This document shows positions 5,280 to 11,620 of a DNA stretch of 12,816 bases, piece by piece. Origin of the DNA: Promethearchaeota archaeon (lineage in GTDB: Archaea > Asgardarchaeota > Thorarchaeia > Thorarchaeales > Thorarchaeaceae). Below the pieces are notes generated by a model that searched no databases, was not told the origin of the DNA, and worked only from the letters and a program-made list of their open reading frames with translations. The stretch spans positions 1-12,816 of the forward strand of contig JALVPN010000120.1 in assembly GCA_027031765.1 (NCBI GenBank), in the 5' to 3' direction. The position numbers and the translations under genes are program-made. Positions within the stretch are counted from its first letter, which is position 1. The number at the start of each line of letters is the position of its first letter.

Positions 5280-5882
5280 GTGAGCCCACACAAGGAGGTC
5301 TTTGACGAACCTGTTGTCCGTGTACAGTTCGACAAGGTCAGGTTTCCGCAGGTGTGTCCGGTATGTGGTGCTAAGGCTACCGAGTCGACAAGGATAACAC
5401 TTGATACGCGCAAACGCTATCTCTCTCGCTCCTGGGATCCCATGGGGTCGCCGACTTGGCGCGCCCGGTTCGGTCACGGCTCCTACCCGACATACGATGT
5501 GGTGTCACTCAGGATACCGGTGTGTGAAGACCATGTGGTCAGTGATGAGAGCGACTGTCGTTCTAGGATACTCTGTGTCGTATATGATGGTCTTCTCCTC
5601 GGGGCCCTACTGGTGACGGTCATGGCTATCGGAAGCGACCTCTGGACTGGCCGGGGTGTTGCCCCATGGACCCTGGTTGTACTGTCTCTAGTCCTCGTGG
5701 CCGGCATCATCAGCATAGTCGTGTTCCGTCCTCGCCCCCTTGAGAAGGCGGTCCGGATTGTTGGTTTTGACCACGGTGTCCACTTCATCTGGCTTGCCTT
5801 TAGTGACCCTGCGTACCGTGACCTGTTCCTCAAAGAGAACGAGATGCATGCCCAGCTGGTTGGCTGGGTCCTGCGTGCATGA
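5280..5882 (+). CDS. Hypothetical membrane protein with CPVC...CEDH putative Zn site and two TM helices
   Basis: 200-aa ORF with GTG start and AGGTG upstream. C26/C29/C82/H85. Two hydrophobic stretches at about aa 97-119 and 127-148. Confidence 0.7.
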   Translation: MSPHKEVFDEPVVRVQFDKVRFPQVCPVCGAKATESTRITLDTRKRYLSRSWDPMGSPTWRARFGHGSYPTYDVVSLRIPVCEDHVVSDESDCRSRILCVVYDGLLLGALLVTVMAIGSDLWTGRGVAPWTLVVLSLVLVAGIISIVVFRPRPLEKAVRIVGFDHGVHFIWLAFSDPAYRDLFLKENEMHAQLVGWVLRA

Positions 5883-5969
5883 TGCCCTCTCCCATTGTCT
5901 CATCGCGTATTGGAGTCCACTGGTACTGCGACAGCCCATGAGTCGCAGCCCAGTGTTCCCGCTGCAGTC

Positions 5970-6350
5970 CTAGAGAGTAAGCTCCTTTTCGCTCTTCCAG
6001 AGTCCGTGGATGTTGCAGTATGCTGTGGCCATAACGGTGCCTGGCTTGTTGGTCTTGAAGACGAACAGCGCGCATGGTTCAGAGTACACCGTGCTTGTAT
6101 CTGCACCCTGTGGCGACTCACCGTGGTGGTCAAAGGTGCAGTAGCCTATCTCGACCGGGAACTTCTCGCCCTCAGGCCAGAAGAACAGGTCAATCCACTT
6201 GATGTGGTGTGCTGTGGTGTTCGGGTGCGCAATCTCCTTGCCCACTGTGACTAGGACGTGGAACAGGTTCTCGCCCTTCTTCTCAATCTCTATCACGGGC
6301 ACGTGTTTCTCACTCTTCCAGTCAGCAGTCTGGATCCACTTCTTTGACAT
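5970..6350 (-). CDS. sor: Superoxide reductase (1Fe-SOR / neelaredoxin), 126 aa
   Basis: DWKSEKHVPVIE, HPNTTAHHI, HGES, YCNIHGLW closely follow the Pyrococcus furiosus SOR pattern, giving the His4-Cys iron ligand set. ATG 6350 has GAGGT 8 nt upstream. TTG 6359 is an alternative start. Confidence 0.95.
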   Translation of the reverse strand: MSKKWIQTADWKSEKHVPVIEIEKKGENLFHVLVTVGKEIAHPNTTAHHIKWIDLFFWPEGEKFPVEIGYCTFDHHGESPQGADTSTVYSEPCALFVFKTNKPGTVMATAYCNIHGLWKSEKELTL

Positions 6351-6403
6351 CTTGTCCAACCTCTCGGTGTACTAGGACTGTAGTGGGACTTATCCACGCT
6401 GAG

Positions 6404-6432: not shown

Positions 6433-7932
6433 TCAGTGTCCCCTCCCATCCACCCCGAGGTGCGTGATGACCCACAGTCCCTGCTCTGTCAACACGTATA
6501 TGGTGCGTGGTCGTCCTCTAAGGGGGCGCCCGGGCCGTGCCTCAGCAATCAGACCAATGCTCCGTAGCTCCGAGAGGTGCTGGTATACGCTGGGAATGCT
6601 GATGCTGACACCATACTCGCTCCTGAGGCGCTTCCATATCTCATAGCCATACGACTCCCCATGCTCCAGTATCCTGAGGATATGGAGTTTCGTAGTCCCC
6701 AGTTTACTTGTGTACTTCCTGTCCTCGACCTGACTGAGTAGGTGTTCCAGCTTTGTGCGCCCGCGTACTAGTGTCCTTGTCATTTCAGGGTACTTGAGTC
6801 CCATACCCGTGATCACACACACCACGCGGTCCGACCTGTCAATCACCCCTTCCCCGCGCAGATGGCCAAGGGCTGCTATGGTGGTCGCTGATGCTGGTTC
6901 TGCAAACACCCCCTCCTGCTTTGCCAGCATGCTCGCACCGTCAAGTATCTCACGGTCGCTCACTGCAACTGCAATGCCGTCCGACTCGCGGAGGGCCCGC
7001 AGTGCCAGCGCCCCACATGCTGGTCTCCGGACGCCAATGTCCATGGCAATCGTGTTTCCTCGCGGTGCCTCCTCTACCTCAGCTGCCCCCGTATGGAATG
7101 CTCTGACAATGGGTGCACAGCCCTTTGCCTGGACGCCCACGATTCGTGTGTCCACCTCTCCGACAAGACCAACCTCCATGAACTCGTTGAGTGCACGCCA
7201 CATCATCGACAGGAGTCCCCCGTTGCCCATTGGGACGACCAACCAGTCCGGGGCCGACCACTGCAGCTGCTCACATACTTCATATGCAGTGGTTTTTATC
7301 CCCTCAAGAAAGTAGGGGTCGTACGGTGTGACTGCACGGTTGCCGGGTCCCAGACTGCTCGCCCTCCTCATTGCCGTGTCCGGGTCTGGGGCTACATCCA
7401 CCCTCGCACTATGTGCTAGGATCTGATAGAGTTTTCCCACATCGATGTTCCGGTGCACCGCTATGAACACACTACACTGGAGGCTGCCCCTTGCAGCATA
7501 TGCGACCAGCGAGGCTGCAAGGTTGCCCGTTGTCCCACAACTAACACTCCTGTATCCGAGTTCCTTGGCCATAGAAACGGCTACAGCAGTCCCCCTGTCT
7601 ATGAACGACCCTGTGGGGTTTGTTGTTTCGGTCTTCAGGAACAGGTCAGTGATATCAAGTCCCCTTGAGAGCTCAGAGCACCGCTGTAGAAACGTCCCAC
7701 CCTCGCCAAGAGATGTCACGTCCTGTCTGTTCCTCAGCGGCAGTAGCTCCCAGTACTTCCATACGCCGGGCGTCCTGCGTTCAAGAACCCGCCGCGATAT
7801 TGTTTCACGCACATCATCAAGTCTGTAGACTACCTCAAGGACACCACCACAGTCCGTACACCGGGCTGAGGGCATACCACTTTCGTACATGGCGCCGCAA
7901 CGTGTACAGCGCAGCCCATACATCGGCGACAT
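6433..7932 (-). CDS. Threonine-synthase-fold (PLP fold II) protein lacking the catalytic Lys, fused to a C-terminal PadR-like winged HTH; putative transcription regulator
   Basis: N-terminal CxxC...CxxC, GEGGT, NPTGSFIDRG (Lys replaced by Ile), TGN, EGIKT, VPMGNGG, EPASA, TGMGLK. Then ILRIL...YGYEIWKRL...SVYQHLSELRSIGLI...RTIYVLTEQG at about 6450-6700. Start is ATG 7932 or 7923. Confidence 0.88.
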   Translation of the reverse strand: MSPMYGLRCTRCGAMYESGMPSARCTDCGGVLEVVYRLDDVRETISRRVLERRTPGVWKYWELLPLRNRQDVTSLGEGGTFLQRCSELSRGLDITDLFLKTETTNPTGSFIDRGTAVAVSMAKELGYRSVSCGTTGNLAASLVAYAARGSLQCSVFIAVHRNIDVGKLYQILAHSARVDVAPDPDTAMRRASSLGPGNRAVTPYDPYFLEGIKTTAYEVCEQLQWSAPDWLVVPMGNGGLLSMMWRALNEFMEVGLVGEVDTRIVGVQAKGCAPIVRAFHTGAAEVEEAPRGNTIAMDIGVRRPACGALALRALRESDGIAVAVSDREILDGASMLAKQEGVFAEPASATTIAALGHLRGEGVIDRSDRVVCVITGMGLKYPEMTRTLVRGRTKLEHLLSQVEDRKYTSKLGTTKLHILRILEHGESYGYEIWKRLRSEYGVSISIPSVYQHLSELRSIGLIAEARPGRPLRGRPRTIYVLTEQGLWVITHLGVDGRGH

Positions 7933-7943
7933 TGTGGCGCGCC

Positions 7944-7970
7944 CCTATATATAGGCACACGCTTATATAT
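7944..7970. promoter_or_regulatory. Divergent promoter: two TATA-like boxes, the first a perfect 12-bp palindrome
   Basis: CCTATATATAGG (7944-7955) is centred about 26 nt from ATG 7923, which fits a leaderless thrC-like mRNA. TTATATAT (7963-7970) is placed to serve the + strand S-component gene. Confidence 0.65.
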
Positions 7971-8028
7971 TCTGGGTATCCCGGCACCATGTCAACACAG
8001 TCGGTAAACTCAGCTGGTGGTGTTGAGG

Positions 8029-8619
8029 ATGAGCGGTGAAGACTCTGCAACCGTGTCTGGGCTGACGCTTTCCGGGCCCGCTGCAACGTCGTGTTGGTGG
8101 CGACCCCCGTACTTGGGACAGGTCGAGTTCCTGTCCATGACGACAATAATGGCCGCGCTGACTGTGGTGTCGACCATGGTGTTCCGGATCCCGTTTGTGG
8201 TGACATCCGGCTACTTCAACCTCGGGGATGCCATGGTGATGACTAGCGGCCTGCTCCTAGGACCAGTGGGCGGCCTCGTTGCAGGTGGCGTTGGTTCTGC
8301 CATCGCAGATGTGGTCGGTGGGTATGCCCATTATGCGCCCATCACACTGGTCGTAAAGGGTGGTGAAGGCCTTGTTGTGGGGCTGTTCGCGTACATTGCT
8401 GGATATGGCAGGCGGCTCTCGTATGTGGAGGTCGTGGGGCTTGTGCTGGGTGCTGTGGTAATGCTCTACGGGTACCTTGTTGCTGAGACGTTCCTCTACG
8501 GGTTTGAGGCTGCGCTCCTTGAGGCTGTGTTCGTGAACTCAATACAGGTGGTGGCCGGTGGGGCTGTCGCAGCAGTGGTGACCCCTCCAGTGAGGCGCTA
8601 CACCATGACGCTGGGCTGA
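8029..8619 (+). CDS. ECF transporter substrate-binding S component, solitary
   Basis: MAALTVVSTMVFRIP...GYFNLGDAMV...GP..G..AGGVGSAIAD..GGY..YAP.TLVVKG.EG is the typical S-component pattern, with about 6 hydrophobic segments. ATG 8029 has GGTGGTG upstream (ORF track starts at GTG 8017). Confidence 0.88.
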   Translation: MSGEDSATVSGLTLSGPAATSCWWRPPYLGQVEFLSMTTIMAALTVVSTMVFRIPFVVTSGYFNLGDAMVMTSGLLLGPVGGLVAGGVGSAIADVVGGYAHYAPITLVVKGGEGLVVGLFAYIAGYGRRLSYVEVVGLVLGAVVMLYGYLVAETFLYGFEAALLEAVFVNSIQVVAGGAVAAVVTPPVRRYTMTLG

Positions 8620-8654: not shown

Positions 8655-8664
8655 CTTATATAAG
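8655..8664 (+). promoter_or_regulatory. Probable TATA box of the 431-aa gene (palindromic CTTATATAAG)
   Basis: TTATATAA in a GC-rich background about 90 nt before the ORF. Confidence 0.55.
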
Positions 8665-8749: not shown

Positions 8750-10045
8750 ATGGATGTTCGCAAGATGACTGACCGGCAAAGGCTTAGGATTGATGCTGGG
8801 CTCGTAGATGCCATCAACAACTTTCTCATCCGCGAGGACAACCCTCTTGTCAACGGGCTCCTTGAGATAATCGAGAGATATGGTGGTGTAGATGAGATCA
8901 ACCGCAGGGCCCGTGAGGCCCGCCAACTTGATAGTCTGATGGCACGTCTTGAGGAGAAAAAGTCGTCCTATGTACAGGACATCGAGTGGCTGCTGAAACA
9001 GAGGGATGTAGATGCATTCATCAGCATTCCTGAGTACCGGCGTCGTGTCCTCGGTGACCGGGCTGACTCCATGACCTTCGACGACTCCTTTGCAGTCACG
9101 CTTGAGATAAGTGCATGCCAGTACTTCCCATGGCTGATTGAGGAGGCCCGTCATGCGATTGAGCACCAGGACTTGATGCCGGGCCGGTTCATCCGGGTGC
9201 GGAACATGCGGGAACAGACTGAGGACGACGACGTCGTTGCATTTGCAGCTGCGATGCAGGTTGTCGGGTCCTCCTATGTGGAGACCCTTGATACGAGGGG
9301 GACTATGCCTGGCCCGGACGGTGCCCCCGTGAATGTTCACCTCGGTGGTCCCGAAACAATTACCGGTTACTTCGGTGGTGTTGGGATGCCAAATGAGCTC
9401 CCACTGAAGTGGGTTGACGAGTACCTGCACTACTACACGGAGTACGGTGTTACGCAAGTGCTGAACGTCAACCCGGGAACGGTCCTCCTAGGGTATATGA
9501 TGTACAAGCTCGGGATTGACATGGAGTTCAAGATCTCGGTCTACATGGGCAATGACAACCCGTATGCCTGTCTATGGACTCTGATGACCGCGTTCCTGTT
9601 CAGCCGCGAGGATGGCACGACCCCGCTCATTGGCTTCAACCTGTCCAACAGTGCCAACAACTACACAATCGAGCTCGCGGCCCTTGTCCGACGGGAGTTC
9701 GGCTTTGAGGACATTGTACGTATCGAACACCACATCACCGAAACGCAGAAGAGCATTGTCCGTCAGCCGTACGACCGGCTCCAAGAGCTCTTGGAGATTG
9801 CGGATCATGTGAAGAACATCAGCGCAAAGCATGAGGGCGGCATCCCGGAGATTGATGCTGCACGCGAACACCCAAGTGATATCCTCGACTACTTCCGTAC
9901 CAAAGCTGATATTGTTGAGGCCGGGCACATGCCCCTGCTACTCCAGAACTACCTTGACAAACATCAGGCCCTCAACAGGACGGCTGAAGAACTGACGAAA
10001 CGCGGCCTGACATTTATTGCCGCCCCCAAGCTCCACCGGACATAG
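8750..10045 (+). CDS. Hypothetical soluble protein, 431 aa, enzyme-like, function unassigned
   Basis: Long ORF with natural globular composition and alternating beta/alpha-like pattern. No motif I can assign. Start is ATG 8750 or 8765. Confidence 0.85.
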   Translation: MDVRKMTDRQRLRIDAGLVDAINNFLIREDNPLVNGLLEIIERYGGVDEINRRAREARQLDSLMARLEEKKSSYVQDIEWLLKQRDVDAFISIPEYRRRVLGDRADSMTFDDSFAVTLEISACQYFPWLIEEARHAIEHQDLMPGRFIRVRNMREQTEDDDVVAFAAAMQVVGSSYVETLDTRGTMPGPDGAPVNVHLGGPETITGYFGGVGMPNELPLKWVDEYLHYYTEYGVTQVLNVNPGTVLLGYMMYKLGIDMEFKISVYMGNDNPYACLWTLMTAFLFSREDGTTPLIGFNLSNSANNYTIELAALVRREFGFEDIVRIEHHITETQKSIVRQPYDRLQELLEIADHVKNISAKHEGGIPEIDAAREHPSDILDYFRTKADIVEAGHMPLLLQNYLDKHQALNRTAEELTKRGLTFIAAPKLHRT

Positions 10046-10846: not shown

Positions 10847-11620
10847 ATGTCACAAGATGCTCTGCTCGAAGTACGTGACCTGCGGGTTGAGGTCAGTGGC
10901 GTCCCAATCCTAGCTGGAGTTGACCTGCTCTTCGAGCGTGGCAAGGTATATGCTGTCCTTGGTCCAAACGCTTCGGGCAAGTCGACCTTGGCCAAGACTA
11001 TAATGGGACTCCCTGAGTATCGCATTGTTGGTGGTGACATCCTGTTCGAGGGCCAGTCCATCGTATCGAATACGATAACTGAGAGGGCACGGATGGGCAT
11101 CGCATACGCCTTTCAGACACCACCGACAATCCCCGGAGTGAAACTGGAGGACTTCATCTGTCGGATTTGTCCTGACTACCTGTGCAAGACTGACAGTGAA
11201 GAGTTCATGGGCGACAACTGTTACTGTAAACAGGAGCTCTATGACGACTTTGAGAGGCTCGGTATATCCAACCTCGCCAAGCGAGACCTCAATGACGGTT
11301 TCTCTGGCGGCGAGTCGAAGCGGAGCGAACTGTTCCAAGTACTTTCCATGCGTCCCAAGATAATGTTCTTGGACGAGCCCGATAGTGGCCTTGATTATGA
11401 CTCGCTGAAGATTGTGGGCCGTGAGCTCCGGGCAATCCGGGAGCGCGGTGACACGACCATGGTCATAATCAGTCATCACAGGTACATCCTTGAGTTCCTC
11501 GAGGTCGACCGGGTGTTCATCCTACGCAGGGGTCGCCTGGTGTTTACGGGGGACATGAGCATCATCCCCGCCCTCGAAGAGAAGGGCTACGAGCGGTTCC
11601 TTGCCGAAGTGGTCGCATGA
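10847..11620 (+). CDS. sufC: Fe-S assembly ABC ATPase SufC (archaeal SmsC-like)
   Basis: Walker A GPNASGKST, Q-loop YAFQ, signature FSGGE, Walker B LDEPDSGLD, H-loop ISHH. Directly upstream of a SufB/D-family gene. Confidence 0.93.
   Translation: MSQDALLEVRDLRVEVSGVPILAGVDLLFERGKVYAVLGPNASGKSTLAKTIMGLPEYRIVGGDILFEGQSIVSNTITERARMGIAYAFQTPPTIPGVKLEDFICRICPDYLCKTDSEEFMGDNCYCKQELYDDFERLGISNLAKRDLNDGFSGGESKRSELFQVLSMRPKIMFLDEPDSGLDYDSLKIVGRELRAIRERGDTTMVIISHHRYILEFLEVDRVFILRRGRLVFTGDMSIIPALEEKGYERFLAEVVA

Follow-up and report, generated by a model that had tools for sequence, protein, structure and literature searches.

A threonine synthase-derived PadR fusion paired with an ECF S-component: a probable vitamin B6 homeostasis module in a Thorarchaeota-like Asgard archaeon

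ThiR (thiamine) and RbkR (riboflavin) are archaeal regulators in which an enzyme domain from a vitamin pathway is joined to a DNA-binding domain, and they control genes for both synthesis and transport of the vitamin concerned. For vitamin B6, the closest described system is PdxR, one of the MocR-type GntR regulators of Bacteria, in which a sensor with the fold of a pyridoxal 5'-phosphate (PLP) enzyme is fused to a winged helix. PdxR adjoins and controls genes of B6 synthesis (pdxST) and/or of salvage and uptake (pdxK, pdxU) (PMC5320631; PdxR-PdxKU locus, PMC11619246), and MocR regulators are reported to be absent from Archaea (PMC5320631). B6 transporters are among the least characterised vitamin transporters; PdxU and PdxU2, two energy-coupling factor (ECF) S-components, both belong to PF07155/COG4720 (PMC9997740). 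PdxU2 is the current name of the Lactobacillus brevis protein first called HmpT (4HZU chain S), which was found loaded with pyridoxamine (PMC4860826). Here we analyse a stretch of 12,816 nucleotides (the window), which is contig C120 (JALVPN010000120.1) of a 2.95-Mb, 95% complete metagenome-assembled genome of a Promethearchaeota archaeon. The window carries, head-to-head, a gene for a PadR-type regulator built on a threonine synthase (ThrC) fold and a gene for a solitary ECF S-component. We consider it likely that the two form a B6 homeostasis module of this Thorarchaeota-like Asgard archaeon, in which a B6-responsive regulator represses the importer and its own gene. The only sequencing run found to contain the stretch is a hydrothermal vent metagenome, its probable source; no RNA run containing it was listed.

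Like PdxR, the regulator combines a PLP-enzyme fold with a winged helix and has B6 genes as neighbours, but the two are not homologous. PdxR consists of an N-terminal GntR winged helix-turn-helix (wHTH) and a fold-type I aminotransferase-like domain, whereas here a fold-type II ThrC-like domain without its lysine is followed by a C-terminal PadR wHTH, and the operator overlaps archaeal TATA boxes; neither a GntR nor an aminotransferase family was among the Pfam matches of the regulator. The linkage typical of MocR/PdxR regulators recurs, as a functional analogy only, in the PdxU2-like neighbour and in relatives linked to pdxS-pdxT. With ThiR and RbkR the regulator shares the concept; the sensor folds and the vitamins differ, and the sensor comes from an enzyme that uses the cofactor rather than from the pathway of the vitamin itself. 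A literature search for a ThrC-PadR protein or an archaeal B6 regulator found no description of the regulator family, which is a non-homologous variant of the PLP-fold sensor-regulators of B6 genes and new to the literature searched. The features of the gene pair are collected in Table 1.

Table 1. Features of the gene pair, with positions in the window
Feature	Position	Strand	Remarks
Regulator gene: zinc ribbon, lysine-less threonine synthase-fold sensor domain and C-terminal PadR winged helix	6433..7932	-	499 aa, P0001
Cys4 zinc ribbon, N-terminal: C9-x2-C12 ... C25-x2-C28	7849..7908	-	From the translation; Cys at least 90% conserved (alignment A3)
Fold-type II PLP-fold (PALP) domain, aa 74-376	6805..7713	-	Pfam; alignment to solved ThrC
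Ile111 codon, position of the PLP Schiff-base lysine	7600..7602	-	SFIDRG where SFKDRG is expected
PadR-type winged helix-turn-helix, aa 418-485	6478..6681	-	PF03551
Candidate operator, inverted repeat TATATAGG-CACACG-CTTATATA	7948..7969	.	Over TATA-like elements of both divergent genes
Solitary ECF S-component, PdxU2/HmpT-like group	8017..8619	+	200 aa from GTG; PF07155

The sensor domain of the regulator was recognised by Pfam as PALP (PF00291, 211 bits), and aa 53-385 aligned with the solved ThrC structures 6CGQ, 2ZSJ, 2D1F and 1UIM. The protein has the same fold as the zinc-ribbon archaeal ThrC (EC 4.2.3.1), from which it differs by Lys to Ile, by Arg to Phe and by the added PadR domain (41.6 bits, cut-off 27). 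Its PLP motif reads NPTGSF-I-DRG, with Ile111 in place of the lysine. The ThrC motif NSxNPxR, whose arginine we take to contact the substrate phosphate, reads TPYDPYF; at the Arg-aligned position, F208, 39 of the 48 members of the Ile/Leu clade defined below have Phe and 8 have Tyr. In the same 48 members G136-N137, G236-x-G238-G239, E345-P346 and T375-G-x-G-L-K380 are nearly invariant; these presumably make the contacts with the PLP ring and phosphate, as in ThrC structures. Judged from these residues, the regulator appears to be a pseudoenzyme derived from threonine synthase, which has kept the cofactor motifs and lost the Schiff-base lysine and the substrate-phosphate arginine. In the PadR domain, Y450, Q451, H452 and L456 of the stretch YQHL-x2-L are invariant in an alignment across phyla. 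This stretch is taken to be the recognition helix, and its invariance fits the conserved operator described below.

Databases name the regulator threonine synthase, and threonine synthase models of NCBIfam span aa 3-393, with NF006050 (315.8 against a cut-off of 303) and TIGR00260 both above their cut-offs. On these grounds the ThrC-like domain might still be an enzyme, either threonine synthase or a new PLP enzyme, and its adjacency to a transporter plain synteny. We regard this as very improbable, as the Schiff-base lysine was absent from all 65 Asgard fusion proteins, which had Ile in 32, Leu in 13, Arg in 17 and Thr, Asn or Val in one each. Among the 120 closest database relatives, which all carry PALP together with PadR and are in many cases labelled 'threonine synthase', the site was Ile or Leu in 118; close relatives of the window's proteins bear the names of Candidatus Thorarchaeota and other Asgard archaea. 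Furthermore, the same genome encodes lysine-bearing ThrC paralogues on contigs C110 (NPSGSFKDRP, about 40% identical to the regulator) and C211 (PTASFKDRG), so that threonine synthesis is independent of the regulator gene. The fused PadR domain, a linkage to the transporter that persists through three gene orders and several phyla, and an operator that is unique in the genome likewise argue against an enzyme. In a quick maximum-likelihood tree of the 65 Asgard fusion rows (IQ-TREE, with support from the Shimodaira-Hasegawa-like approximate likelihood ratio test, SH-aLRT, only), an Ile/Leu clade of 48 rows (SH-aLRT 95) stood apart from an Arg clade of 17 rows.

We next consider the arrangement of the two genes. 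The first-pass annotation had placed them head-to-head across about 100 bp, and this proved right, the interval measuring 84 bp (7933-8016), or 96 bp if the S-component starts at ATG 8029. A divergent S-component adjoins the regulator in 30 of the 30 closest loci (49-57% identity, 30 genomes), so the divergent pair itself is conserved; elsewhere operon or convergent orders occur as well. At more distant Asgard loci (33-49% identity) an S-component lay within 5 kb in 25 of 38, and these 25 comprised divergent pairs, six S-component genes directly downstream on the same strand and three convergent ones. The survey was extended to 80 further loci, one genome per species, from Asgard, Bathyarchaeia, Nitrososphaerota/Aigarchaeota, Thermoplasmata, Methanobacteriota, Methanomethylicota and Hadarchaeota. 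Here an S-component was found within 4 kb at 63 loci, pdxS-pdxT at 7, both at none, and neither at 10; of these last, several are located at contig ends and one is a normal ThrC with its lysine. With 30/30 of the closest, 25/38 of the distant Asgard and 63/80 of the multi-phylum loci, the adjacency of regulator and S-component is far beyond chance.

The neighbours at the remaining loci point to the vitamin concerned. At 9 loci overall the regulator stands beside pdxS-pdxT instead of an S-component, and never beside both. Two of them in the Ile/Leu clade, L034 (divergent) and L041 (directly downstream), carry pdxS-pdxT with SOR_SNZ and SNO Pfam E-values of 1e-50 to 1e-101, and the pdxST-linked L034 is sister to the S-component-linked L037 with SH-aLRT support of 100 in the quick tree. 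Searches for PdxS, PdxT, PdxJ and PdxA gave no match in the window's genome. None of 59 genomes of the same family gave a PdxS match; across the phylum, 38 of 251 genomes did. The Asgard genomes G007 and G041, in which the regulator lies next to pdxST, were PdxS-positive, and no PdxS match was obtained in the searched genomes with the importer arrangement. The importer arrangement thus goes with genomes in which synthesis genes were not found, and the pdxST arrangement with genomes that have synthesis. If the organism truly lacks both routes of PLP synthesis, B6 import would be essential to it. Of the co-occurrence with pdxST/pdxK that the first-pass annotation proposed as a check, the relation to pdxST is borne out by the same-clade regulators beside pdxS-pdxT; no PdxK-type kinase was found.

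To place the S-component, whose subfamily could not be assigned by eye, we compared its sequence and its predicted structure with solved proteins. It scored 118.2 bits against PF07155 (cut-off 26.7, aa 39-188). Its start is uncertain among GTG 8017, ATG 8029 and TTG 8113; the database protein P0003 (168 aa) starts at TTG 8113, and the model has low confidence over the first 33 residues of the long form (predicted local distance difference test, pLDDT, below 65). The only sequence relative in the PDB was 4HZU_S, with E 1.6e-15 for the single protein and 1.3e-20 for a profile of 30 relatives; RibU, FolT, ThiT, BioY and PanT gave no sequence match at E up to 10. The AlphaFold2 (AF2) model of the S-component (pLDDT 88) led to the same protein, 4hzu_S being the top Foldseek match (TMt 0.84, root-mean-square deviation 2.6 Å, 30% identity), followed by TmRibU (TMt 0.73, 18% identity) and, lower, by BioY, FolT, ThiT and PanT. 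PdxU2/HmpT is therefore both its sole solved sequence relative and its best structural match; the two share a Pfam family and three pocket residues, the host here being an archaeon. In the pocket, D71, K114, E117, Y153, N174 and Q177 show no variation among 30 Asgard relatives, and Y120, N140 and Q143 of PdxU2 are kept as Y153, N174 and Q177. This placement and pocket support a ligand related to that of PdxU2, and are not proof of an identical vitamer. ESM Atlas matches were generic 'ECF S component' clusters only.

That the S-component transports a B6 vitamer is suggested by genomic association, namely the pdxST alternative, the missing PdxS match and the B6-type regulator. A module that is real but serves another ligand and substrate, for example a related heterocycle such as HMP, the pyrimidine of thiamine (in keeping with the earlier name HmpT), or a metabolite that is phosphorylated or resembles an amino acid and goes back to the ThrC ancestry, seems to us unlikely. 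One database relative of the S-component indeed bears the name 'Thiamine precursor transporter HmpT', the pocket departs from that of PdxU2 at three of six residues, no PdxK was found, and no NCBIfam S-component subfamily was reached above cut-off (TIGR04002, 48 bits against 120). However, regulators of the same clade stand beside pdxS-pdxT in the 9 loci named above, four of them (L034, L041, L109 and L149) sharing the operator of the window, with 14-15 of 16 positions matching, and PdxU2/HmpT itself has been shown to carry pyridoxamine (PMC4860826). Salvage of HMP needs ThiD, which was not found either (0 of 61 genomes of the family). In the regulator the position of the substrate-phosphate arginine of ThrC is lost, and the presumed cofactor-contact motifs are kept.

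The DNA between the two genes contains the candidate operator, which takes in most of a perfect palindrome, CCTATATATAGG (7944-7955). Upstream of the Ile/Leu-clade regulators, in the S-component and the pdxST context alike, the consensus is TATATA[A/G]G-N6-CCTATATA, with a spacer that is always 6 nt. The repeat lies 3-30 nt upstream of most of these regulators, usually ending 15 nt before the start codon, and matches at least 13 of 16 positions at most of the 46 scored Ile/Leu-clade loci. Among the pdxST-linked loci, L109 and L149 have 14/16, within the 14-15/16 of the four mentioned, and L105, L108 and L111 have 12/16. Members from Bathyarchaeia, Aigarchaeota and Nitrososphaerota carry the repeat as well. 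S-component homologues in the pdxST-linked genomes G007 and G041 had no operator. When the whole 2.95-Mb genome was scanned with a matrix built from 30 sites (reporting threshold 12 bits), one site was found, that in the window, at 44 bits, and no other. Since this is the single match in the genome, the predicted regulon is limited to the bidirectional promoter of the gene pair.

As the repeat covers the TATA-like elements of both promoters, binding of the regulator should block the TATA-binding protein (TBP) and transcription factor B (TFB). The opposite sign, in which the unliganded regulator activates the importer (or pdxST) as the bacterial PdxR does on pdxST, appears to us quite improbable. 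PdxR-type regulators are reported to be activators whose activity is lowered by PLP, and the sign of regulation is not readable from sequence. Against activation stands the placement of the repeat, which coincides with the TATA-like elements and in most loci is 15 nt away from the regulator start codon; archaeal repressors typically occupy such a site over TATA. Activators in Archaea mostly bind further upstream, ahead of the TFB-recognition element (BRE) and TATA.

Apart from these loci, a sister clade in other genomes (loci L050-L070 and L129-L166) carries Arg where the lysine would be (PTNSFRDRA) and is without the TATATAGG-N6-CCTATATA operator. Its S-component gene is usually directly downstream in the same direction, and at L164 the regulator gene precedes pdxS-pdxT. 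A few relatives retain the lysine, for example L134 (NPTNSFKDRA), with an S-component downstream.

We propose the following model for the pair. A B6 vitamer, most likely PLP, would bind reversibly in the cofactor pocket of the regulator, serving as a signal instead of being held there covalently; with the Schiff-base lysine and the substrate-phosphate arginine lost, such reversible binding could take place. The dimer, once it carries the vitamer, would then dock on the inverted repeat through its pair of PadR winged helices, and occupancy of the operator would deny TBP and TFB access to both divergent promoters. When B6 is plentiful, the S-component gene and the regulator gene would both be repressed, and when it is scarce both would be released. 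The S-component, as a PdxU2/HmpT-type binding subunit, would import a B6 vitamer through a shared EcfA-EcfT module encoded elsewhere in the genome, on contig C89. Feedback control of B6 uptake by a PLP-fold sensor, suggested in the first-pass annotation, thereby gains support from the placement of the S-component, the conserved pair and the pdxST alternative. Sequence comparisons establish the pair itself, the loss of the lysine, the linkage to importer or pdxST and the shared operator; the ligand, the transported vitamer and repression as the sign are what we infer.

Several observations weigh against this model. In the pocket of the S-component, E41, H84 and Q87 of PdxU2 are replaced by D71, K114 and E117, and the substrate may not be pyridoxamine. 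The Arg clade scores no more than 11/16 for the repeat, lacks the operator and in many cases lies among unrelated genes (GINS/MCM, MOFRL). The operator is itself a TATA-like sequence, and its conservation could partly reflect promoter function. The absence of biosynthesis genes rests on draft genomes. Moreover, searches for a PdxK/ThiD-type kinase (PF08543) identified none here or in any of 61 genomes of the family, so a simple picture of uptake and phosphorylation leaves the fate of an imported unphosphorylated vitamer unexplained. A weak PF08543 match on contig C47 was examined as a possible PdxK and rejected, as it is the repair enzyme Nnr, with YjeF_N and Carb_kinase domains. This leaves two options, a kinase that escaped recognition or import of the vitamer in phosphorylated form.

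The second option leads to a bolder version of the B6 module, which we put forward as a speculation with a rather low chance of being right. The regulator would be the pan-archaeal counterpart of PdxR, reading free PLP, and the S-component would import a phosphorylated vitamer, that is, PLP, pyridoxamine 5'-phosphate (PMP) or pyridoxine 5'-phosphate (PNP), perhaps by means of the invariant Lys114. Import of this kind would explain why neither a PLP synthase nor a PdxK-type kinase is found in the lineage. If true, this would be the first B6 regulator described in Archaea and the first ECF S-component for a phosphorylated form of B6.

A solitary S-component would depend on an energising module located elsewhere. 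As noted from the start, the window contains no genes for it: no EcfT gene (PF02361) was found there, the matches in the genome being confined to contigs C41 and C89, and the sole ABC ATPase of the window (10847-11620), followed by a gene with a SufB/D core, is interpreted as SufC. The EcfT on C41 was rejected as the shared module, since it is part of a CbiMNQO cluster. The candidate for it is on C89, where an ABC ATPase gene (EcfA, cut by the contig end) is followed by EcfT with no S-component beside it (locus L084, 3869-5222, minus strand); at this contig end the assembly lacks the second ATPase and the beginning of the first. Complex prediction for the C89 EcfT with the S-component gave 0.75, compared with 0.02 for the best of 3 controls, a result that may reflect likeness to solved ECF complexes. 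This mark was attained by 58 of 80 solved complexes and by 2 of 110 mismatched pairs. The runs agreed in at least 87% of contacts, with a partner pLDDT of at least 81. ECF complexes have already been solved, so the score may show likeness rather than binding.

A second, weaker PF07155 S-component (28.6 bits) is encoded in the same genome (G000) on contig C130 (locus L085, 3211-4495, minus strand). It lies directly upstream of a gene for a DUF4443/PH0730-like_N protein, which also has a weak, sub-threshold match to the DNA-binding family CggR_N. By its gene order this may be another pair of regulator and vitamin importer.

If the B6 module is correct, the family would supply a B6 regulator, of which none is known to have been described in Archaea, and a transporter for many archaeal phyla, together with a ready-made candidate operator, and would correct a widespread misannotation as 'threonine synthase'. 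It would provide a case in which an enzyme fold was reused as a sensor of its cofactor through loss of the catalytic lysine. Thorarchaeota-like Asgard archaea would be probable B6 auxotrophs, dependent on their community.

Further genes of the window lie on either side of the pair. Just downstream of the S-component, 8750-10045 (+) encodes a protein of 431 aa that matched nothing in Pfam or NCBIfam. It is highly conserved (61-78% identity) and occurs, apparently in single copy, in 139 of 251 Asgard genomes, within the window's family usually near the S-component. Its AF2 model (pLDDT 90) combines a helical N-domain with a TIM barrel of generic type, which no known structure matched specifically. 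We considered this gene as a third member of the module, for instance the missing kinase, and rejected it; the barrel is generic, and given its wide occurrence and its location on a separate contig from the regulator in G041, it is treated as a syntenic neighbour. Some 90 nt ahead of this gene, at 8655-8664, is a palindromic TATA-like element, CTTATATAAG, which looks like a single operator half-site; it lacks the second half and was not scored by the matrix scan. On the other side of the regulator, only overlapping open reading frames without a family match occupy 5280-5970, and 5970-6359 (-) encodes a superoxide reductase domain of the neelaredoxin/desulfoferrodoxin type (TIGR00332, 108 bits).

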